Source: Spirochaetales bacterium
GTDB lineage: Bacteria; Spirochaetota; Spirochaetia; DSM-27196; SLAA01
DNA length: 36,192 bases
Assembly: GCA_007126415.1 (NCBI GenBank)
Contig: SLBH01000010.1
Coordinates: forward strand, 1 to 36,192
Reading direction: 5' to 3'
Shown here: positions 26,534 to 36,192 of the stretch, piece after piece
Layout: each line of letters starts with the position of its first letter
How positions within the stretch are numbered: position 1 is the stretch's first letter
The notes under the pieces: generated by a model
The model's input: the letters and a program-made list of their open reading frames with translations, nothing else
Database searches by the model: none
What the model was told of the DNA's origin: nothing
Translations under genes and position numbers: made by a program

Positions 26534-27742
26534 ATGCAGTACTTTATCGAGCAGGCATCAACGCATCGTGAGGCGGAAGCCAAGGTTCGGCAGAAGTACG
26601 GTGACCGAGCTCGCATCATGAGTCACAAAAGCGTCCGAATCGGCGGCTTCTTGGGCTTGTTTTCGCGCGAAGGCGTGGAGGTAACCGGATATTTCTCGGA
26701 TGAACCGGTGCGCCGTGAGCCCCCCAAACGCAGCGCCGACGTAGAGGAAGAGAAGAAGAAGATCCTCGGCACGGTAAAAAACGACAAAACCATAGAGATG
26801 GTGCTGAAGGAGCTTCAGGAGCTGCGTGAGACTCTCAACAGCGAGGAACGCACAACGCGTGCCCCGGCCGCGGTGCAGCAGAATCATCCCACGATCGAGC
26901 GAATCATTGAGCTCTTGCGTCATAATGAGTTTGTTCCCGAGTATATCGATGAGATGGTCGCGCGCGTGCGAAACGAGTTCTCGTTCGAGCAGCTCGAAGA
27001 CTTCGAGTTGGTGGAGCGACAAGTCGTGCGCTGGATCGGCGACTCAATCAGTCTGCTGCCGTTCGATACCAAACACAAGCCCAAGATCATGGTACTTGTG
27101 GGGCCAACCGGGGTCGGTAAAACTACCAGTATTGCCAAGCTCGCCGCTATCTACGGTATACAGGGCGTAAACGGCATCATAAGCGACGTGCGGGTGGTAA
27201 CTATAGACAACTACCGCATCGGAGCGAAGGAGCAAATCGAGACCTACGGCCACATCATGAACATTCCGGTCACCTGCGTCGAGACTTTCGACGAGTTACG
27301 CAAGCAGGTGGCGCTGTACCGTGATGTAGACGTCGTTTTCATAGATACCGTCGGGAAGAGCCCGCGAGATTTTGCCAATCTTGGAAAGATGAACTCGCTG
27401 TTGCAGGGATGTGGCGGCGCCGGTGAGGTACACTTGGCGTTAAGCGCCACCACCAAGACGAGCGACCTGCAGCAGATCGTGCGGCAGTTCGAGTCGTTTG
27501 GAACCGCGGCCGCGGTCATAACGAAGCTCGATGAAACCACACGGGTTGGGAATGTGATTAGCGTTCTCCATCAAAACCGTAAACCGATTTCATTTATTAC
27601 CGATGGTCAAGGTGTGCCCCAAGATATTGAGCCGGCTTCAATTCCGAGGCTGCTGATCAATCTCGAGGGGTTTACCGTGGATCGCGAAGACATCGAGCAG
27701 CGATTTGCGGAATCACGAGCGACGGAGAACCAAAGTGGCTGA
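26534..27742 (+). CDS. flhF: Flagellar biosynthesis GTPase FlhF (SRP family)
   Basis: G-motifs [25 protein letters not shown] and TKLDET. ATG 26534 follows GAGGGGAG. The track ORF opens at GTG 26522, which overlaps the flhA stop. Confidence 0.92.
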   Translation: MQYFIEQASTHREAEAKVRQKYGDRARIMSHKSVRIGGFLGLFSREGVEVTGYFSDEPVRREPPKRSADVEEEKKKILGTVKNDKTIEMVLKELQELRETLNSEERTTRAPAAVQQNHPTIERIIELLRHNEFVPEYIDEMVARVRNEFSFEQLEDFELVERQVVRWIGDSISLLPFDTKHKPKIMVLVGPTGVGKTTSIAKLAAIYGIQGVNGIISDVRVVTIDNYRIGAKEQIETYGHIMNIPVTCVETFDELRKQVALYRDVDVVFIDTVGKSPRDFANLGKMNSLLQGCGGAGEVHLALSATTKTSDLQQIVRQFESFGTAAAVITKLDETTRVGNVISVLHQNRKPISFITDGQGVPQDIEPASIPRLLINLEGFTVDREDIEQRFAESRATENQSG

Positions 27743-28598
27743 TCAAGCGGAAACGCTTCGTGAGATTATGAAGGCTCGCAGCGTGCCGGAGAAAACCGGA
27801 ACCCGTATTATTGCTGTTGCCAGCGGCAAGGGCGGGGTTGGCAAGACGAACATCTCAACCAATCTGGCGCTGGCGTACGCCAAACTTGGTAAACGCGTGG
27901 TGTTGATGGATGCCGACCTGGGACTCGCCAACGTCAACGTGGTCCTGGGTGTGATCCCAAAGTATAACCTGTATCACTTGATCCGCAAGCAGAAATCACT
28001 GACCGATATTCTGATGGATACCAGCTACGGCATACAGATTGTGGCCGGCGCCAGCGGTTTTGCAAAGATCGCGAACCTCAACGAGGATGAGCGGGAGTCC
28101 TTCGTGGAGGAGTTAAGCGGTCTCTCGGCCGCCGATGTCATCATCATAGACACCAGCGCCGGTGTTTCAAACAATGTACTGTCCTTCATCGCCGCAGCCG
28201 ATGAGGCGATCATCGTAACCACGCCGGAGCCTACCGCGATTACCGACGCCTACGGCATTATCAAGATCATCGCTACCGAGATAGACAACCTCAGCCTCGG
28301 GCTGAAGCTGATCGTCAACCGCGTCGGCTCGGTTACCGAGGGAAAACAAGTCGCCCAACGCGTGGTTAATATCGCATCGCAGTTTTTGAACCTCAAAGTG
28401 GATTATCTTGGGTATGTGTACGAGGACGCGGCTGTTCATCAGGCGGTGTTGCGCCAGAAGCCGTTTATGGTAACCGATCCCAAGAGTCGGGCCTCGATCT
28501 GCATACAGCATATCGTCGGGCGGATGGAGAAAATAGATGTAAAGGAGGGCTCCGGTATCGGGCAGTTCCTACGGCGCCTGTTTTCGCGCAGTAATTGA
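27735..28598 (+). CDS. flhG: Flagellar number regulator FlhG (MinD/ParA-type ATPase, YlxH)
   Basis: Deviant Walker A SGKGGVGKT, DADLGLANV, and a C-terminal amphipathic membrane-targeting helix GIGQFLRRLFSRS. GTG 27735 lies about 7 nt after GGAG and overlaps the flhF stop. The track ORF opens at TTG 27705. Confidence 0.9.
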   Translation: MADQAETLREIMKARSVPEKTGTRIIAVASGKGGVGKTNISTNLALAYAKLGKRVVLMDADLGLANVNVVLGVIPKYNLYHLIRKQKSLTDILMDTSYGIQIVAGASGFAKIANLNEDERESFVEELSGLSAADVIIIDTSAGVSNNVLSFIAAADEAIIVTTPEPTAITDAYGIIKIIATEIDNLSLGLKLIVNRVGSVTEGKQVAQRVVNIASQFLNLKVDYLGYVYEDAAVHQAVLRQKPFMVTDPKSRASICIQHIVGRMEKIDVKEGSGIGQFLRRLFSRSN

Positions 28599-28610: not shown

Positions 28611-28645
28611 AGCTGGGCGGGCGCCGAGCGCAGGCCCGCGCAGCT
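28611..28645 (+). terminator. GC-rich hairpin 12 nt after the flhG stop (possible operon boundary; no U-tract)
   Basis: agctg(28611-15)/cagct(28641-45) and gcgggc(28617-22)/gcccgc(34-39 of 286xx) pair with one internal mismatch and an 11-nt loop. There is no adjacent T run. Confidence 0.3.
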
Positions 28646-28673
28646 TGACGGCGCTACCGTTTTGGCCTAAGCT
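28645..28673 (+). promoter_or_regulatory. Candidate sigma-70-type promoter for the post-flhG gene block
   Basis: TTGACG (28645-28650), an exact 17-nt spacer, then TAAGCT (28668-28673). It lies 30 nt upstream of ATG 28703, in the longest intergenic gap of the second half of the window. Confidence 0.45.
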
Positions 28674-28702
28674 GTCGCCAAGCTACTGGAGATTGTGGCG
28701 CA

Positions 28703-29563
28703 ATGCGGATTACCTGGCAAGCCGCCGCGGCCGCGGCCGGTGTTGGTTTTCTGATCTCGGTTCTGAGCGGCCTGTTCGGGGGCGTCACACTTGGTACGCT
28801 TCTCTTCCGTGCCGTGCTTGCTGCGGTCATTTTCGGCGCCGGGGCGGTTGGCGTTGAGCAGATTTTTCAACGTTTTTTGCCTGAACTCTTCACTGGAAGC
28901 GACGGTGAGGCCGGCGAGCGCGACGCTGTGCCCGGAGCGTCGTCGAGCGCCGAGGCCGGCGGAGGCGGGAATGTCGAGATTGTGTTGGAAGAAGACGAGT
29001 ACCGGCCGGATGCAGGCACCGACGTCGGCTCTGCGGAGGCCTCGGAATCCACCGGGGCAACGGGAGCGGCTGCGAGTTTAGCAAGCGCGTCGGGCTTTAG
29101 CGCAGAGGCGGGGACCGAAGACGAGAACTCGAAAGCGGATGCCGAGTTCAACGTCGGGCTGCATAGTTTCGAGGACTCCCTCGTTGAGGAGGTCTCGGAG
29201 GAGCTTGGCGGCGTTGAGCCGGGCGGGTTGCGTGACGCGCACCCCGAGCCCGACGACCTTGGGTCTGAGGACGGTCACGTCGCGGCGGCCGAGACCGAGT
29301 CTGCCTCGGTTGAGGGAGCCGGCGACGCCGAAGGCGGCGGGGTGCCGGAGGTTGACCCTGGCGAGCTCGATACGCTGCCGGATATCGAGGCGTTTTCGGG
29401 CGATTTTGCAAGTGATGTTGGTACCGGCGGAGGCGCGGGGCGCGGCTCCGGCTCAAGCACTGGGGCGTCCTCGCAGCGGGAGGGTGACTCAAGCGATCAG
29501 GACCCGTCGGTGATGGCAAAAGCGTTACAAACGATGTTGAAGCGTGACGAGCAGCGCAAGTAA
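28703..29563 (+). CDS. Hypothetical membrane protein: two N-terminal TM helices plus a long acidic Gly/Ser/Ala/Glu-rich disordered region and a short conserved-looking basic C-terminus
   Basis: 286 aa. TM1 is [26 protein letters not shown] and TM2 is [15 protein letters not shown]. About 190 aa of D/E/G/S/A low complexity follow, and the protein ends [21 protein letters not shown] recognise no family. Confidence 0.6.
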
Positions 29564-29576
29564 CCAAGGGACGCAG

Positions 29577-30365
29577 ATGAGCGAGAACGCGTTAGCGACA
29601 AAGTCCGAGGCGGAGCTGTGGCGACTGTATCGGCAGAACCACGATCCGCGAATTCGGGAACAGCTGGTAAAACAATACGCGCCGCTGGTCAAGTATGTCG
29701 CCGGCAAGGTTGCGATTGGTATGCCTCACAACGTGGAGTTCGACGATCTCGTCGGCTACGGGGTGTTTGGGTTGTTCGACGCGATCGAGAAGTTTGACCC
29801 GGATAAACATGTGAAGTTCAAGACCTACGCCGTCACCCGCATCCGCGGTGCAATCTTCGACGAGCTGCGCTCAATAGACTGGGTGCCGCGTTCGGTACGG
29901 CAGAAGACACGCGAGGTCGAGGAAACGGTGCGAAGGCTCGAATCTTCGCTGGGACGCGCTGCGTCCGACCAGGAGATCGCGGGTGAGCTCAATATCTCGG
30001 TCAAAGAGTTCGAGAAGCTGATGCTCAAGATCAGCGGCACCTCTATTATGTCGCTGAACGACGTGTGGTATACCGGCGAAGAGAGCGACACCGTTTCGAT
30101 CGCCGATACCATTGAGTCGCCGCAGAGCCTAAATCCCGACATCATAGTCGAGAAAGACGAAATGAAGCGCGTGATCGTTCAGTCGATCAACGAGCTTCCC
30201 GAAAAAGAAAAGAAGGTGCTCGTGTTATACTATTACGAGGACCTGACGTTGAAGGAGATCGGGCAAGTCCTTGAGGTCACCGAGTCACGAATCTCGCAGC
30301 TGCATACAAAGGCAATTATGCGGCTTCGCGCGAAGTTGACCAACCTCAAGAAAGGAATTATGTAG
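29577..30365 (+). CDS. fliA: RNA polymerase sigma-28 factor FliA/WhiG/SigD
   Basis: Region 2 reads [43 protein letters not shown]. Region 4 HTH reads [37 protein letters not shown] 29577 follows AAGGGA. The track ORF opens at GTG 29544 inside the upstream gene. Confidence 0.92.
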
Positions 30366-30367
30366 CC

Positions 30368-32311
30368 ATGGTCGGTATGGACCGGCTCAAGGAGTACATG
30401 CAGCGGCAGTACTCCGAAGACCAACAGCGAACCTTCGTCCACGTTGGCGGTGATACGCTCGAGGAGGCGCTGAACGCCGCCGCGATCGAGCTTTCGATAC
30501 CGCTAAAGCGTATCGAGTACGAGATCCTCGAGAAAGGGACGAAAGGCGTGTTGGGGGTGGGAAAACGGCCATACAGCATCCTTGCCTATCCGGCGGCTCC
30601 CGAACAAGAACCGGAATCGCTCGAGCTTTCGGGTGACGAAGACCTCGAGCTCGACGGTCTCGGCGGCAAGCAGCGCGACGGTGAGGCGCTTGTGCGTCGT
30701 ACGCCGCAGGGGGTGCTGCTTAAGGTCACAAAGCCCGAAGGCGGCGGCCGTACCGTCACCGAGAACGATGCACTCGAGGTTCTGCAGCGGCGGTTCGACG
30801 GTTCGTACGACGTTGCGACGGTAGCCAAAGTAGTGAAACGCGCCGACGGTGAGTTCGTGAAGGTCGCCGAGATGCAGCATGACCCCTCTAACGACGCGAT
30901 GCTCACCGTGAACATCGTAGAGCTCGATATGAAGGCGTTGTTGGTAGCGATGCCGCCGGGGCCCGGCGGGGCGGACCCCGAGTACGAAGCGATCATCGGC
31001 TTTCTCAAGGCCAACGGCGTGGTTGAAGGCATTAAGACCGAGGCGATCGAACGCTTCGTCGAGAAACCCGAGTACAACCAGCCGCTGCTGGTCGCCGAAG
31101 GGCGAAGACCGCGCAACGGTGCCGATGCGCGCATCGTGTACGAGTTCGAGACCGACAGCACACGGATCAAGCTCAAGGAGAGCGAGGGTCGGGTAGACTT
31201 TAAAGACCTGAACATCGTTCAAAACGTGGTGGCGGGCCAGGTTGTGGCGCGCAAAATTCCGGCCGAACCTGCCGAGCCGGGAGTAACGGTCACCGGTAAG
31301 GTGCTCCCGGCCGAGGACGGCAAGGATGCCGCGATACAGGCCGGGAAAAACGTTAAGCTGTCGGAAGACGGTCGGACCGCGATGGCCGAGATCAACGGCC
31401 AGGTGGTTATCGCGGCCGGGAAGATCAACGTTGAGCCGGTTTACGTTGTCAACGGCAACGTCAGCCTCAAGACCGGAAACATCTTGTTCCTCGGTACGGT
31501 TGTGGTTAAGGGTCACGTTGAGGATGGGTTCGATGTCAAAGCCAGCGGCAACATCGAGGTCATGGGCGGTGTCGGCAAGAGCAACCTAGACGCCGAGGGC
31601 GACATAATTGTGCACCAGGGCATCGGCGCCAAGAGCGAAGGTACGGTGCGAGCCGGGCGTAACGTATGGTCGAAGTTCATCGAGAACGCCGAGGTTAGCG
31701 CGGGCGATCTGGTGGTGGTAAGCGACGGAATCATGAACTCGCACGTCGTCGCGCAACGGAAAGTGATCTGTAAAGGTAAACGCGCGAGCATCGTCGGTGG
31801 CGCGGTGCGCGCCGCTGAGGAGATTAACGCGAAGTCCCTCGGAGCGGTTGCCGGCACCGAAACCATCCTCGAGGTCGGCTACGACCCAACCAGCAAGGAG
31901 CGCCTTGCCGCGCTCGAGCAAGAGCGGGGCGAGTATCAAAAGAAGCTCGAGGAACTGCAGCGTAATCTCACCACGCTCGAGAACATGCGGCGGCAGCACA
32001 AGAAGCTCACGAAAGAGAAGATCGAGAACTACAAGCGGCTCATGAAGAGTAAGGAACAGCTTACGGCCGAGACGCGGCGGGTTGCCAAGGAGATTCAAGA
32101 GATCCAAGAGTACCTCGGCGAGCTCAGCACCACCGGTCGCATTAGCGCCTCGGCTACGGTCTTTCCGGGGGTCAAGATGTACATCAAGGACGCGCCGTTG
32201 GCGGTGAAGAACGAGTTCAAGGCCGTCAGCTTCGTGGCTGAAGGTGATGTGGTGAAAGTCACTAAGTATCAGGAGTCGGATGAGGATTTAGCGTCGGCGC
32301 GCAAAGCATGA
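30368..32311 (+). CDS. FapA-family (DUF342) protein with Jag_N/KhpB_N-like N-terminal domain and C-terminal coiled coil
   Basis: 647 aa. The N-terminus VHVGGDTLEEALNAAAIELSIPLKRIEYEILEKGTKGVLGVGKRPYSILAY resembles the Jag N-domain. The centre has beta-helix-type repeats (GNILFLGTVVVKGHVEDGFDVKASGNIEVMGGVGKSNLDAEGDIIVHQGI...) typical of DUF342. A Lys/Glu-rich coiled coil follows (YQKKLEELQRNLTTLENMRRQHKKL...). It starts 2 nt after the fliA stop. Confidence 0.75.
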   Translation: MVGMDRLKEYMQRQYSEDQQRTFVHVGGDTLEEALNAAAIELSIPLKRIEYEILEKGTKGVLGVGKRPYSILAYPAAPEQEPESLELSGDEDLELDGLGGKQRDGEALVRRTPQGVLLKVTKPEGGGRTVTENDALEVLQRRFDGSYDVATVAKVVKRADGEFVKVAEMQHDPSNDAMLTVNIVELDMKALLVAMPPGPGGADPEYEAIIGFLKANGVVEGIKTEAIERFVEKPEYNQPLLVAEGRRPRNGADARIVYEFETDSTRIKLKESEGRVDFKDLNIVQNVVAGQVVARKIPAEPAEPGVTVTGKVLPAEDGKDAAIQAGKNVKLSEDGRTAMAEINGQVVIAAGKINVEPVYVVNGNVSLKTGNILFLGTVVVKGHVEDGFDVKASGNIEVMGGVGKSNLDAEGDIIVHQGIGAKSEGTVRAGRNVWSKFIENAEVSAGDLVVVSDGIMNSHVVAQRKVICKGKRASIVGGAVRAAEEINAKSLGAVAGTETILEVGYDPTSKERLAALEQERGEYQKKLEELQRNLTTLENMRRQHKKLTKEKIENYKRLMKSKEQLTAETRRVAKEIQEIQEYLGELSTTGRISASATVFPGVKMYIKDAPLAVKNEFKAVSFVAEGDVVKVTKYQESDEDLASARKA

Positions 32312-32327
32312 CACACGGAAGGTGCAG

Positions 32328-32660
32328 ATGTCGTTGCTACCGATCGACCTTCAAACCCTATTTCTCAGGATGAGTCAAGTTGGGCAGGATCAGGCCGCCC
32401 AGCGCGACTCCATCATTCAGGGGCAAGACGTCGCCGGCAGGGAGATTGCGCAACGCAGCCGGCAACATCAGCTCAGTGTCGGCGAGGCCCAGCGTGTTGA
32501 AGAGGGTCCCGACGCAATCAACGAGCACGACTCGGGAGCGCAGACCGAAAGCGGTGAGCAGGGCGAACAGGCCGCGGACAATGCCGAGACAAAAGGAACC
32601 GAGGAAGAGAATGTGTTTCAGGATCCCGATCTCGGCCGCAATATCGACATTTCGGGGTAG
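32328..32660 (+). CDS. Small acidic hypothetical protein (110 aa), hydrophobic N-terminal helix plus disordered tail
   Basis: MSLLPIDLQTLFLRMSQVGQDQAAQRDSIIQGQDVAGREIAQRS... is followed by a Glu/Gln/Gly/Ala-rich tail. ATG 32328 lies about 5 nt after GGAAGG. GTG 32322 is an alternative start. I recognise no family. Confidence 0.55.
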   Translation: MSLLPIDLQTLFLRMSQVGQDQAAQRDSIIQGQDVAGREIAQRSRQHQLSVGEAQRVEEGPDAINEHDSGAQTESGEQGEQAADNAETKGTEEENVFQDPDLGRNIDISG

Positions 32661-32666
32661 TTCCGG

Positions 32667-33281
32667 ATGCCCTTAGTCGTACCCATCGCTCTCAATATTG
32701 TAGTTCTCGCTATCGGCTTTGTGTTTCTGCATGCCAAGCTCGACCGCAAGGTGCGCCCGGACGCCTTGCTGGACGAGATCAAGCGCGAAGTTAACAGCAT
32801 TATCGTAGAGCTGAACCAAACCACCGATCGAAATATCGGCCTCATTGAGGAGCGCATCGAGACGCTCAACGCCATGCTCGAGAAGGTGGACAAGCGCCTT
32901 GCGTTGATTCGGCGCGAATGGGAGCAGCACGAAGCCGGAGCTCGTGTGTACACCGACCTCAAACGTGTCGCGAAACAGAGCAGAAGCTCGGGTGGCGGAC
33001 TCCCGCCGGCAGCCGGTTCGTCCGAGGCTCGGCGGGAGCCGGGGGCCGAGGCGCGCTCGGAAAAGCACCCTGAGGACGCCTCCCGGCCGTCGGGCGACTC
33101 GGAGACGCTGCCGAGCGGTTCCGAGAGCGCGAAGCGATCGCAGGAGGCGCGCAGCCGCGTGCGCGAGCAGGTTGTGTCGTTACATCGTAAGGGAATTGCG
33201 CCGAACATTATAGCGAGCCGAGTGGGCTCGACGCTCGGCGAGGTAGAACTCATCATAGCTTTGCACGACGGAAAGGGTTGA
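32667..33281 (+). CDS. Membrane-anchored coiled-coil protein with C-terminal helix-turn-helix-like segment (DUF2802-like architecture)
   Basis: 204 aa. N-terminal TM PLVVPIALNIVVLAIGFVFL, helical segment EIKREVNSIIVELNQTTDRNIGLIEERIETLNAMLEKVDKRL, a disordered Ser/Gly/Glu/Arg linker, then SRVREQVVSLHRKGIAPNIIASRVGSTLGEVELIIALH, which has HTH-like spacing. Confidence 0.6.
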   Translation: MPLVVPIALNIVVLAIGFVFLHAKLDRKVRPDALLDEIKREVNSIIVELNQTTDRNIGLIEERIETLNAMLEKVDKRLALIRREWEQHEAGARVYTDLKRVAKQSRSSGGGLPPAAGSSEARREPGAEARSEKHPEDASRPSGDSETLPSGSESAKRSQEARSRVREQVVSLHRKGIAPNIIASRVGSTLGEVELIIALHDGKG

Positions 33282-33282
33282 T

Positions 33283-35007
33283 ATGCAGCCGATCATCGGA
33301 ATCGATCTAGGAACAACTAACTCCAGCGTCGCTGTCGTTCTACACGACGAGCCGCGCACGGTGGTCAACGCAGTTGGAAGCCGAACTACGCCTTCGGTGG
33401 TGTCGCTCGCGGGCGACGGAGAGGTGCTTGTCGGACAGTCCGCTCGTAATCAGGCCGTGAGCCGTCCGGAGGTGACGGTTCGAAACGTGAAACGCTTGAT
33501 CGGCACCACCGAGTACTGCAGCCTTGGAGGTCGGCGTCACTCGCCGGAAGAGATCAGCGCGCTCATTCTCAAGCAGCTTCGAAGCGATGCCGAGGCGTAC
33601 CTGGGTGCGGCGGTACAGGACTGTGTGATCACGGTGCCGGCGCATTTCTCACAGGCACAGCGCCTCGCGACGCGCGAGGCCGGTCGCTTGGCAGGGCTCG
33701 AGGTGCGGCGGATCATCAACGAGCCGACCGCGGCGGCTCTGGCGTACGCTTCGGAGCTCGCTCGGCAGGCGCGCATCGTGGTGTACGACCTCGGCGGCGG
33801 AACCTTCGATGTTACCTGCCTCGAACGCGATGGGGAGAAGTTCGCGGTACGCTCCACGCTGGGTGACGGCGCACTCGGCGGCGTTGAGTTCGATAGAATG
33901 CTGCTCGAGCACGTGGTAGGGGAGTTTGAGCTCCAAGCCGGCACGCGGCTGCAGGAAGACCGCGTCTTGATGCAACAGCTGCAGGAACTCGTTGAGCGTG
34001 CAAAGATAGAGCTCTCGAGCCGGGTCTCTAGTACGGTAGCGTTGCCGTTTTTCGGGCGCAACGGCGGCACGCACTTGACCTGCGAGCTTACGAGAGAGTT
34101 GCTTGAGGGGTTGATCACACCGATGCTGCACCGAAGCGTAGGCCTTACCGAACAAGCCGTTGAGGAAGCGGGATTCAACGACGAGAACGGAATTGATTAC
34201 CTCGTTCTCGCCGGCGGATCAACGCGGATTCCGTTGGTGCAGCGCTACCTCGAGCGCAAGCTGGGGTGTCGTCCCTCGGCGCGAATTAATCCTGATGAGG
34301 TAGTAGCGCTCGGTGCCGCGCTGGATGCCGAGTTGGTGCGTTCCGCCTCGGAGCGCAAGCGCGTACAGGACGTGACCGGCTTTGCGTTAGGTGTTGAAAC
34401 CGAAGGAAATACCGCCACGGTGCTTATCCCGCGTAATACTGCGCTACCGGCGCGTGTGACCGAGGTCTTCACCACGGTGAGCGACCGTCAGCACTCGGCG
34501 CAGATTCACGTGCTGCAGGGTGAGGAGCGGGCCGCGTCGCAAAACAACTCGCTTGGTCGCTTCATGCTCGCCGGCTTGAGCGAAGGCGCGCGCGGTGAAC
34601 CGCGCATTGAGGTGAGTTTTGACCTCGACCACGACGGGATCGTGACGGTGCGCGCCCGCGACCTTGCTTCGGGGGTTGAGGAGCAGACCACGGTGGTGCC
34701 GGTCTTTGAGGAAGGGGGGCGGGAAGGGCGCGACCGGGACTCCGGCCGCGACGACGAGTTGCGATCCGCGCAACGGCAGGTGCAGCGGCTCGTTGCGTAC
34801 CTTGAGGCGCAGCTATCGAAGCATGCCGATGCGATAGAAGCGGAGTTTCGCTCCGAGATAGAGGAGCTTCTGCAGGGAGCGCAGCACGCCGCGCGTACCC
34901 TGCGGCAAGCGGCGCGTCTGCACGAGTATCGCATCGCGCTTGAAACCATTGTGCAGGAGCTGCGCGCCGTTGATCTCGAGGCGGAGGTCGGCAATGAGGG
35001 CGCATGA
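33283..35007 (+). CDS. Atypical short Hsp70-family ATPase (DnaK paralogue, HscC-like size)
   Basis: 574 aa. Hsp70 motifs IIGIDLGTTNSSVAVV, NVKRLIG, IINEPTAAALAY, VVYDLGGGTFDVT, LVLAGGSTRIPLV and INPDEVVALGAA. A beta-sandwich substrate-binding domain is present (DVTGFALGVETEG...IEVSFDLDHDGIVTVRARD). The hydrophobic VLLL linker is replaced by KRVQ, and the helical lid is short. Confidence 0.88.
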   Translation: MQPIIGIDLGTTNSSVAVVLHDEPRTVVNAVGSRTTPSVVSLAGDGEVLVGQSARNQAVSRPEVTVRNVKRLIGTTEYCSLGGRRHSPEEISALILKQLRSDAEAYLGAAVQDCVITVPAHFSQAQRLATREAGRLAGLEVRRIINEPTAAALAYASELARQARIVVYDLGGGTFDVTCLERDGEKFAVRSTLGDGALGGVEFDRMLLEHVVGEFELQAGTRLQEDRVLMQQLQELVERAKIELSSRVSSTVALPFFGRNGGTHLTCELTRELLEGLITPMLHRSVGLTEQAVEEAGFNDENGIDYLVLAGGSTRIPLVQRYLERKLGCRPSARINPDEVVALGAALDAELVRSASERKRVQDVTGFALGVETEGNTATVLIPRNTALPARVTEVFTTVSDRQHSAQIHVLQGEERAASQNNSLGRFMLAGLSEGARGEPRIEVSFDLDHDGIVTVRARDLASGVEEQTTVVPVFEEGGREGRDRDSGRDDELRSAQRQVQRLVAYLEAQLSKHADAIEAEFRSEIEELLQGAQHAARTLRQAARLHEYRIALETIVQELRAVDLEAEVGNEGA

Positions 35008-35896
35008 ACTCTACAAGGAGCTCGGCCTGAAGCCCAACGCCGACCCGGTTGAGGTCAAGCGAGCGTACCGGGCTCTTCTGAAACGCTACCATCCCGACCT
35101 CGCCGGCGCCAACAACCATACCGAACGCCTCGATCGGATCGTCGCCGCGTACCGCGAGCTGATGAGCCGTCGCGAGCCGATCCCGTTTCGAACCCGCGAG
35201 CAAACGAACAGGCGCGCGCAGTCACGGGCACGAGGCACCTCGTGCCGAACCGGCGCCGGGCGGGCACAAGGCGCCGGGCGGACACAAGGCACCTCGTACC
35301 AAGCCGGCGCTGGGCGGGCACAAGGCGAGGGCCGGCCCCCGGGCGGCGCGCGGCACGGCACCACCGCGCGCGGTTGGACCGATGCCGGAGCCGACGGTAC
35401 CGCCGCCGGTCCGCGTGGCGCAACCGCAGCCGACGGTGGGGCGGAGCGCGAGTACGATCTATTCACGCTTGGGCGTATGGCGGTTGAGTCCAACAGTGTC
35501 AGTCGGCGCGCCTTTGCGGTGCGTATGCTCGGCAATCGTCGCAAGAAGCTTGCGTACGGTTACATTCGGCAAGCGCTGAACGACCCCGCCGAGATTGTGG
35601 TGCTCGAAGCGGTGCGTGCGGTCGCTAAGCTCGAGATCCTGCAGTCGGGCGGGGAACTCGCCACGGCGTTTCATCGCGACTCCGCGGCGGTAAAGACTGC
35701 GATCCTAACCGCAGTGGAAACGATAGCTCGACCGCAGCACTTTCATTCGGTGATCCTCTCCGGCCTACGCGAAACCGACCCTGTTCTGCGCCGCCGCAGT
35801 CTGCGACTGTTTCGCCGCTACACCCAGGCCGATGCGTCGGACACCGGTACCTCTCGATATCGACGTACAGCCTCGTTCGGTGAGGGCGGCCGATGA
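34994..35896 (+). CDS. J-domain protein with Arg/Gly/Gln repeat linker and C-terminal HEAT-like repeats
   Basis: The J-domain reads MRAHELYKELGLKPNADPVEVKRAYRALLKRYHPDLAG (HPD present). The C-terminus RRAFAVRMLGNRRKKLAYGYIRQALNDPAEIVVLEAVRAVAKLE...DSAAVKTAILTAVETI...LRETDPVLRRRSLRLF looks like HEAT/PBS-lyase-type repeats. ATG 34994 lies about 6 nt after GGAGG and overlaps the Hsp70 gene by 14 nt. The track ORF opens at 34940. Confidence 0.8.
   Translation: MRAHELYKELGLKPNADPVEVKRAYRALLKRYHPDLAGANNHTERLDRIVAAYRELMSRREPIPFRTREQTNRRAQSRARGTSCRTGAGRAQGAGRTQGTSYQAGAGRAQGEGRPPGGARHGTTARGWTDAGADGTAAGPRGATAADGGAEREYDLFTLGRMAVESNSVSRRAFAVRMLGNRRKKLAYGYIRQALNDPAEIVVLEAVRAVAKLEILQSGGELATAFHRDSAAVKTAILTAVETIARPQHFHSVILSGLRETDPVLRRRSLRLFRRYTQADASDTGTSRYRRTASFGEGGR
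35234..35327 (+). repeat. Imperfect in-frame 54-nt tandem repeat (with an internal 18-nt sub-repeat) in the J-protein linker
   Basis: ggcacctcgtgccgaaccggcgccgggcgggcacaaggcg (from 35234) and ggcacctcgtaccaagccggcgctgggcgggcacaaggcg (from 35288) match at 36/40 positions by eye. The sub-unit gcgccgggcgg[g/a]cacaag occurs twice in copy 1. The repeat encodes (A)GRAQG/GRTQG units. Confidence 0.8.
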
Positions 35897-36192
35897 GCGG
35901 CCTTCGCACGCTCTCACACGACGGCTCGCCACGCTCGGCAGGCTCGGGCCAGGGCCGCGCACGAGCGATGGAGTATCGCCGACGCCTCGGCCGTACCTTT
36001 CTCGACGACGGACGCGTGATGCTCGAGGGGCTTAAGGATGCGATCGCCCAGATCGGGCAGTCGGCGGATTCCGGCGCGCTCGTGAACCAAGCGTTTCGCT
36101 ATGCGCATTCGTTGAAGTCGGAAGCATCCTTTCTTGGGCTGACGCCGTTGTTCGAGCACGCGTATGCGCTCGAGGAGTATCTTGCGTTGGTG
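35893..36192 (+). CDS. Hpt-domain protein, N-terminal fragment (CheA-like histidine kinase start; 3' end outside window)
   Basis: This ORF is not in the supplied track because it is open at the window edge. My own translation from ATG 35893 (ATGA overlap with the J-protein stop) is MSGLRTLSHDGSPRSAGSGQGRARAMEYRRRLGRTFLDDGRVMLEGLKDAIAQIGQSADSGALVNQAFRYAHSLKSEASFLGLTPLFEHAYALEEYLALV. The segment FRYAHSLKSEASFLG matches the Hpt phospho-His motif (compare CheA P1 ..AHSIKGGA..F..). There is no stop for 100 codons. Confidence 0.6.
   Translation, partial: MSGLRTLSHDGSPRSAGSGQGRARAMEYRRRLGRTFLDDGRVMLEGLKDAIAQIGQSADSGALVNQAFRYAHSLKSEASFLGLTPLFEHAYALEEYLALV

Follow-up and report, generated by a model that had tools for sequence, protein, structure and literature searches.

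Gene order at the downstream end of a spirochaetal flagellar super-operon and its counterpart in Borrelia bb0268-bb0264

The DNA analysed here (hereafter the window) comprises 36,192 nucleotides (nt) of contig SLBH01000010.1 from a Spirochaetales bacterium (GenBank assembly GCA_007126415.1), and our subject is the block of eight genes that follows the flagellar gene flhG near its downstream end. We consider it highly probable that this block has three layers and forms the downstream end of a flagellar super-operon of the flgB type, and that Borrelia genes bb0268-bb0264 represent the same unit minus fliA, the gene for sigma-28, and minus a gene for a protein with a J domain and predicted HEAT repeats (J/HEAT). 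The first layer would be an ancient sub-module encoding FlgV, sigma-28, FapA, a small protein with two conserved motifs, and a protein with a transmembrane (TM) helix and a helix-turn-helix (HTH) domain. The second layer would be an older, repeatedly lost extension consisting of a dedicated Hsp70 and its own J/HEAT co-chaperone, and the third would be a lone cheA, present in the lineage of the window. In this scheme the Borrelia genes would be the unit seen in the window after loss of fliA and J/HEAT.

The Borrelia match is real, but Zamba-Campero et al. had already reported the core of it (Nat Commun 2024, PMC11607428), and the finding is therefore mostly not new. What is added beyond the literature found is that the Borrelia protein annotated as 'dnaK-1' (BB0264) appears to belong to an old flagellar Hsp70 lineage, which has its own J/HEAT partner in many other spirochaetes and would have lost that partner in Borrelia. 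The correspondence allows results from Borrelia genetics and in-situ cryo-electron microscopy to be transferred to free-living spirochaetes and back. With functions now assigned to two of the five Borrelia genes, attention turns to BB0266, BB0265, and BB0264, which are conserved, co-transcribed, and non-essential and are natural candidates for the motor densities that have yet to be assigned.

Correspondence with Borrelia bb0268-bb0264

Borrelia persica No12 and Borrelia sp. BU AG58 were used as stand-ins for B. burgdorferi DNA, and six Borrelia loci were compared in all, the other four coming from genomes of a single genus code, 1.0-1.3 Mb and ~30% GC, with FapA at ~280 kb. All six loci share the order flhF, flhG, an open reading frame (ORF) of 161-173 amino acids (aa), FapA (631-632 aa), a 103-aa ORF, a 165-aa ORF, and an Hsp70 of 492-503 aa; 3' of the Hsp70 gene lie an opposite-strand signal peptidase gene and then an M23/LysM peptidase gene. 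The B. burgdorferi B31 series BB0268-BB0264 has the same order and matching protein sizes (Table 1), with BB0263 (lepB-3) on the forward strand, opposite to BB0264-BB0268 (Lin et al. 2012 supplement). The numbering and annotation of these five genes had been given in the first-pass annotation of the window, and the B31 list of Lin et al. 2012 contains exactly that series.

Homology was detected when the window proteins were compared with those of the two stand-ins by phmmer. FapA (E 1e-97; 33% identity over 631 aa to B. persica), Hsp70 (E 4e-99 to 4e-102), and the TM/HTH protein orf204 (E 6e-22 to 2e-23; 1.6e-23 to B. persica) gave strong matches, and orf286, identified below as a FlgV protein, matched at E 3.5e-9 (B. 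persica) to 5e-6, with 37% blastp identity over 49 aa to the B. persica protein. The small protein orf112 matched at E 0.007 in one of the two stand-in loci (L012) and had no match in the other (L013). The upstream border is likewise shared, with 50% identity between the window and B. persica proteins for FlhG, a regulator of flagellar number of the MinD/ParA type. Orthology and synteny were thus shown for every one of the five Borrelia genes, with support weakest for the small ORF (BB0266), and the earlier proposal that the Borrelia order is that of this block with fliA removed is borne out by both sequence and position; of the core genes, Borrelia lacks fliA alone. The two sites differ in that Borrelia lacks fliA, J/HEAT, and cheA, all three of which are present in the window; the fliA, J/HEAT, and Hpt proteins of the window had no phmmer match in the two stand-in loci. 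In addition, the Borrelia Hsp70 lacks most of the lid, and the tail of Borrelia FlgV is ~100 aa shorter than that of the window protein.

The absence of sigma-28 from Borrelia, also stated in the first-pass annotation, agrees with the profile searches. The window fliA product scores well above the cut-offs of both models for this factor (NF004935, 434.7 bits, cut-off 343; TIGR02479, 294.8 bits, cut-off 189.6), and a 1.14-Mb genome that we take to be T. pallidum-like scores 290.7 bits with TIGR02479. No FliA-class sigma factor exceeded the TIGR02479 cut-off in the four Borrelia genomes (98-99% complete), where the search returned only RpoD (118 bits) and RpoS (~85 bits).

Published work on B. 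burgdorferi describes a closely similar arrangement. The first-pass annotation had ended the flgB operon at BB0269, but current literature counts the super-operon as bb0294-bb0264, with bb0268 co-transcribed with bb0272-bb0264 (PMC11607428). In the same study, bb0268 was renamed flgV, its Hfq assignment was rejected, and the gene was located between two sub-modules, one comprising flhF and flhG and the other encoding sigma-28 ('lost in Borrelia') with FapA, YjfB, and a TM+HTH protein. The order in the window after flhF-flhG is identical to this published sub-module. The FlgV arrangement is reported to span spirochaetes, Bacillota, and other phyla, and by that account the module would not be confined to spirochaetes (PMC11607428). 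Beyond the operon count, Hsp70 (bb0264) is not discussed in that paper, nor is J/HEAT mentioned, whereas the lineage of the window adds both J/HEAT and a lone cheA.

The window (~60% GC) consists of a single long flagellar super-operon on the forward strand, the upstream part of which carries genes for a rod protein, FliF, FliI, FlgE, MotB, FliM, FliP, FlhB, FlhA, and FlhF (Pfam). Eight genes had been placed after flhG on this strand, and all were confirmed at the positions in Table 1. From flhG through to cheA, successive intervals are 104, -20, 2, 10, 6, 1, -14, and -4 nt, negative values denoting overlaps, and a consensus scan gave no convincing internal promoter or terminator in the block. 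The true start of fliA is likely the ATG at 29577. For J/HEAT, the longest ORF begins with a TTG at 34940; read from 34994, it shares 14 nt with the end of the Hsp70 gene, and the cheA start overlaps the J/HEAT stop by 4 nt. In a relative that is 96% identical (L001), a complete 676-aa CheA (Hpt, P2, HATPase_c, and CheW domains) occupies the position of the Hpt gene, and the operon ends after cheA, with non-motility genes next. The nearest public relatives of the window organism are metagenome-assembled genomes from soda-lake sediment.

Table 1. Genes at the downstream end of the window and their counterparts in B. burgdorferi B31 (B31 coordinates, strands, sizes, and annotations of BB0264-BB0268 from the supplement of Lin et al. 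2012)
Gene or product	Position	Strand	Identification	B31 counterpart
flhG (upstream border of the block)	27705-28598	+	Pfam CbiA/ParA/AAA_31 (ParA/MinD family)	BB0269 (named flhG in PMC11607428)
orf286, predicted FlgV type 1	28703-29563	+	Alignment of 30 members, phmmer	BB0268, 281314-281793, reverse, 159 aa, conserved hypothetical
fliA (sigma-28)	29544-30365	+	Pfam sigma-70 regions 2, 3, 4	none
fapA	30368-32311	+	Pfam Jag_N + FapA_N + FapA beta-solenoid	BB0267, 279407-281311, reverse, 634 aa, conserved hypothetical
orf112, small, acidic, mostly disordered	32322-32660	+	Alignment of 27 members	BB0266 (putative), 279078-279386, reverse, 102 aa, conserved hypothetical
orf204, TM + long helix + disordered linker + C-terminal three-helix HTH-like domain	32667-33281	+	DUF6115/DUF2802-like	BB0265, 278537-279058, reverse, 173 aa, conserved hypothetical
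Predicted flagellar-operon Hsp70, 574 aa	33283-35007	+	PF00012, E 7e-147	BB0264, dnaK-1, reverse, 491 aa
J/HEAT co-chaperone: J domain (HPD) + Arg/Gly-rich linker + predicted HEAT repeats	34994-35896	+	Pfam	none
cheA, 5' end (Hpt domain), cut by the window end	35893-36192	+	Pfam Hpt	

Distribution across Spirochaetota

The FapA family (PF03961) is nearly universal among the sampled Spirochaetota (297 of 301 genomes), and many genomes carry 2-5 genes with this domain. From ~45 genomes we took ~14 kb of sequence surrounding the top FapA match, which gave 60 loci with 42 family codes. The window proteins served as seeds for the jackhmmer profiles used in annotation, and the core was defined as FlgV and TM/HTH on the FapA strand. 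The core order is present in 48 of the 60 loci and in 31 of the 42 family codes, which amounts to a shared order far beyond chance. All 48 core loci contain fliA except the six from Borrelia. Members of the orf112 family were identified in 36 of these 48 loci; certain lineages genuinely lack the gene, and there FapA and TM/HTH are separated by just 21-37 nt.

The chaperone extension has a different distribution and is patchy across spirochaetes. Where 2 kb or more could be read downstream, a full-length Hsp70 follows TM/HTH in 10 family groups, and J/HEAT accompanies it in every one of these except Borrelia. Hsp70 lies at a contig end in an eleventh group (f8) and is absent from 20 other family groups. 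In three lineages (L005:8382-10745, L034, and L051) the TM+HTH gene is immediately succeeded by cheA, and neither Hsp70 nor J/HEAT intervenes; a solitary cheA at the end of the operon would therefore predate the chaperone pair or be unconnected with it.

Two side observations concern loci with other arrangements. In the 1.14-Mb T. pallidum-like genome (single contig; L010, G102:C1:774000-790000), the FlgV-fliA-FapA-TM/HTH unit is detached from, and convergent with, flhA-flhF-flhG, and contains neither the small ORF nor Hsp70, which indicates that the sub-module can stand alone. In nine other genomes (L019, L020, L030, L033, L036, L037, L045, L054, and L058), the best FapA lies away from flhG, fliA, and TM/HTH; these are either FapA paralogues or genes from genomes whose flagellar cluster is organised in another way.

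The flagellar Hsp70 and its J/HEAT partner

Phylogenetic analysis separates the Hsp70 of the flagellar operon from DnaK. In a maximum-likelihood tree (LG+C20), 16 flagellar-operon Hsp70s are divided from 7 DnaKs by a strongly supported branch (100/100), and the Borrelia proteins fall inside a group of 11 sequences (100/100) that contains the window protein. All flagellar Hsp70s share a deletion of ~22 aa in the nucleotide-binding domain, which DnaK lacks, and they retain the DLGTTNS, NEPTAAAL, DLGGGTFD, and GGSTRIP motifs, such that the ATPase motifs are intact. The window protein has a shortened lid and scores below the DnaK cut-offs (NF001413, 543 vs 648; TIGR02350, 528 vs 823). By these sequence characters it is a flagellar-operon Hsp70 of the BB0264 'dnaK-1' type and not a canonical DnaK, and the best reading of position, tree, and deletion taken together is that the Borrelia and window flagellar Hsp70s are orthologous.

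The J/HEAT protein encoded next to it has a clear J domain (PF00226, 43.2 bits, cut-off 27.8), with the HPD motif present in all full-length members ('YHPDLAG' in the window). Its HEAT region scores below the HEAT_2 cut-off in the window (20.9 bits, cut-off 27.7) and reaches 39.7-49.4 bits in aligned relatives; a word-based protein search with this region returned only 5 near-identical proteins. No protein combining J and HEAT parts was found in the four Borrelia genomes, where each of the three J-proteins lacks a HEAT part.

An alternative scenario is that Hsp70, with or without J/HEAT, is an ordinary stress chaperone that happens to be encoded beside the flagellar operon, and that the match with Borrelia reflects positional coincidence or independent recruitment. 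This would fit the BLAST result that a canonical 652-aa DnaK of the window genome is a slightly better match to the Borrelia Hsp70 (350 bits) than the window Hsp70 is (334 bits), as well as the pair's absence from most sampled lineages and the viability of BB0264 transposon mutants. Nevertheless, we regard it as improbable, given that all 16 flagellar proteins fall on one side of the branch described above and share a deletion not found in DnaK, and that separate canonical DnaK and DnaJ proteins are kept in the genomes that carry a flagellar Hsp70. The Hsp70 gene is also always located directly after the TM+HTH gene, often with a 4-nt overlap, and one lineage still retains, at the Hsp70 position, a copy reduced to the substrate-binding domain together with a HEAT-only partner.

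In that lineage (L006-L008), the Hsp70 covers only positions ~393-495 of the HSP70 profile (L007:10973-12104, L008:11046-12326, and L006:4126-5163), and in the two loci checked, L007 and L008, the J domain is gone from the neighbouring partner and its HEAT repeats persist. Such a combined loss, of the ATPase on one side and of its activator on the other, is coherent, and what is left of each gene still occupies its position. As a further observation, the genome of the window contains two additional full-length genes for 652-aa DnaKs (C248:5663-7345 and C189:23915-25711). In the tree, the C189 protein groups with the DnaK of a genome from the same order (G210), and the C248 protein branches beside this pair; one of the two may be a true paralogue or may derive from the 2.8% contamination of the assembly.

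The flagellar lineage of Hsp70 thus favoured here resembles the HscA/HscB system, in which a non-housekeeping Hsp70 is likewise encoded beside a specialised J-protein, and by analogy the non-J part, here the HEAT repeats, would select the client. The two systems differ in that HscA/HscB serve Fe-S assembly in an isc context and the window pair occurs in a flagellar context, and the window Hsp70 scores higher on DnaK than on HscA models (543 vs 409 bits).

Several observations weigh against the interpretation of the block given at the outset. The core is missing from 12 of the 60 FapA loci. Eight of these have no flagellar neighbours on the FapA strand and are probably paralogues or rearranged clusters; of the others, two (f22) lack orf112 and orf204, one has no detectable FlgV, and one lies on a short contig. 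Hsp70 and J/HEAT are absent from most sampled motile lineages, including genomes taken, by inference, as Treponema-, Leptospira-, and S. thermophila-like, and the pair therefore cannot be essential for motility. BLAST gives ~40% identity between the Borrelia and window Hsp70s, and about the same between each of them and DnaK, without singling out a best hit. Because BLAST alone fails to identify the orthologue, orthology of the Hsp70s is argued from the tree, the shared deletion, and position, and the tree by itself could be affected by long-branch attraction. The small-ORF match is statistically weak (pairwise E 0.004-0.008) and rests on short end motifs. Finally, the link of BB0264-BB0266 to the motor is a putative one.

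Predicted roles of the conserved proteins at the motor

The block had been regarded in the first-pass annotation as functionally unassigned as a whole. This no longer applies to two of its members, as FlgV was characterised in 2024 (PMC11607428) and FapA in a 2026 preprint. The former corresponds to orf286, which has two TM helices (residues ~6-25 and ~28-51), with an arginine (R36) in the second ('LLFRAVL') followed by 'PELF'. This arginine column is common to most of the 30 aligned FlgV members, including those of Borrelia. The tail (residues 61-265) is acidic and disordered, with 50 D/E, 6 K/R, and 93 G/S/A residues, and the C-terminal peptide aligns with the family consensus DPxxxAxAIRTxLxxDE (30 members). 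The gene lies between the flhF-flhG and fliA/fapA sub-modules, an order repeated in the 48 core loci of the survey. Since all of the sequence features listed in PMC11607428 are present, orf286 is identified as a FlgV type 1 protein. In B. burgdorferi, FlgV localises to basal bodies and tunes flagellar number and length (PMC11607428).

It had been suggested that orf286 was worth testing as an atypical Hfq, following the 2010 proposal that BB0268 is an Hfq-like RNA chaperone. Apart from this older annotation of BB0268, the disordered C-terminal tail, as found in Hfq tails, is compatible with such a role. However, no Pfam or NCBIfam model matches orf286 and it contains no Sm/Hfq domain; its conserved parts are only the two TM helices with the intramembrane arginine and the short C-terminal peptide. 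Moreover, BB0268 was reported to be neither an Hfq homologue nor an RNA-binding protein (PMC11607428). We therefore give the Hfq explanation almost no credence for either protein and retain the FlgV assignment.

FapA is the best understood member of the block. The gene bb0267 is named fapA both in PMC11607428 and in a preprint of October 2026 (bioRxiv 10.64898/2026.10.14.759253), according to which B. burgdorferi FapA binds the cytoplasmic face of MotA5B2, beneath the MotA pentamer, masks the FliG interface, and acts as a molecular clutch that holds stators disengaged. Deletion of fapA lowers swimming speed and reversal frequency, and densities not yet assigned adjoin FapA in the Borrelia motor (bioRxiv 10.64898/2026.10.14.759253). 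The window FapA (PF03961, 252.2 bits, E 9e-75, cut-off 31; PF20250, 166.4 bits, cut-off 27) is a full-length homologue of BB0267 with the same Pfam domains; the clutch function has been shown in Borrelia only, and the window protein has an N-terminal domain of the Jag_N type.

Transposon mutants provide phenotypes for several of the Borrelia genes. As had been proposed at the outset, the existing library was consulted, and Lin et al. 2012 report insertions in all five genes, with BB0264, BB0266, and BB0267 mutants viable and attenuated in mice. Positive mouse sites at the first and second time points numbered 1/15 and 0/15 for BB0267, 7/15 and 2/15 for BB0266, and 7/15 and 7/15 for BB0264, and the main text of that study lists 'DnaK-1' among candidate virulence determinants. 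Our literature search found no paper on BB0264, BB0265, or BB0266 themselves.

Membership of the operon, translational coupling of the genes, attenuation of Borrelia mutants, and motor densities that still await assignment lead us to infer, as the most economical hypothesis, that the small protein, the HTH protein anchored in the membrane, and Hsp70, together with J/HEAT in lineages that have it, may act on a single motor-proximal assembly of FapA, stator, and FlgV. Within it, Hsp70 would serve as an ATP-driven remodeller recruited by its J/HEAT adaptor and not as a general folding chaperone. A more specific possibility, which is speculative and which we rate as rather unlikely, is that the BB0266-, BB0265-, and BB0264-type proteins (and J/HEAT where present) set and release the FapA stator clutch and would explain the globular and ring-shaped densities, still unassigned, beside FapA/MotA, with Hsp70 stripping FapA off MotA in an ATP-dependent manner, much as Hsc70/auxilin acts on clathrin.

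The small protein orf112 belongs to a family (27 aligned members) with conserved N-terminal 'PIDLQT' and C-terminal 'DPxLGRNIDI' ('DPxxGRNIDI') motifs. The Borrelia 103-aa ORF retains 'MDIN...' and 'DPKIGRNIDIER', and from motif and position we take it to be a putative homologue of orf112. The position of orf112 is labelled 'YjfB' in PMC11607428, but orf112 fails the Pfam YjfB_motility model. No Pfam or NCBIfam family matches orf112, and none of the 27 family members matches PF14070 (YjfB_motility, cut-off 27 bits) at E<=1. When the family was aligned by hhalign with four true YjfB proteins (31% probability, E 5e-4), only the C-terminal 15 columns ('LGxxIDI') corresponded, and PF14070 occurs in 4 of 41 genomes of the class, never at the orf112 position. 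A true YjfB_motility protein (78 aa, 36.4 bits) is encoded elsewhere in the window genome (G000:C31:7243-7374; L063:1408-1644, reverse strand); it was this ORF, and not orf112, that a six-frame search of the genome with the model returned.

Being small, acidic, disordered, and encoded two genes 3' of fliA, orf112 could also be viewed as an anti-sigma-28 factor analogous to FlgM, in which case the block would be mainly a sigma-28 regulatory cassette. The window genome, however, has a bona fide FlgM away from the super-operon (G000:C272:2170-2349, 43.1 bits, over the cut-off), and the orf112 family is kept in Borrelia, which lacks sigma-28 (four genomes). These two facts make an anti-sigma role unlikely for orf112. 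The family is, furthermore, missing from some of the lineages that keep fliA, namely those with the short FapA-TM/HTH interval noted above, and we regard the regulatory-cassette explanation as very improbable. A role for orf112 at the motor-proximal complex is the reading that we prefer.

The last member of the core, orf204, falls just short of the DUF6115 cut-off (23.7 bits, cut-off 27), and its Borrelia orthologue exceeds it (29.3 bits; 22.7 bits for DUF2802). An AlphaFold2 model (predicted local distance difference test score 77) runs from a TM helix through an 80-residue helix, on which lies the ELNQTTDRNI motif that is invariant in the family alignment, and a disordered linker to a C-terminal domain of three helices. 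Foldseek searches with this model gave weak, non-significant matches, all of which were small HTH domains. The HTH-like domain (residues 153-197) and the corresponding Borrelia protein (L012:10251-10748) score 27.6 and 34.9 bits against the C-terminus of the NCBIfam SpiroCoCo model (cut-off 125), and this small domain may be shared with the SpiroCoCo family coiled-coil protein.

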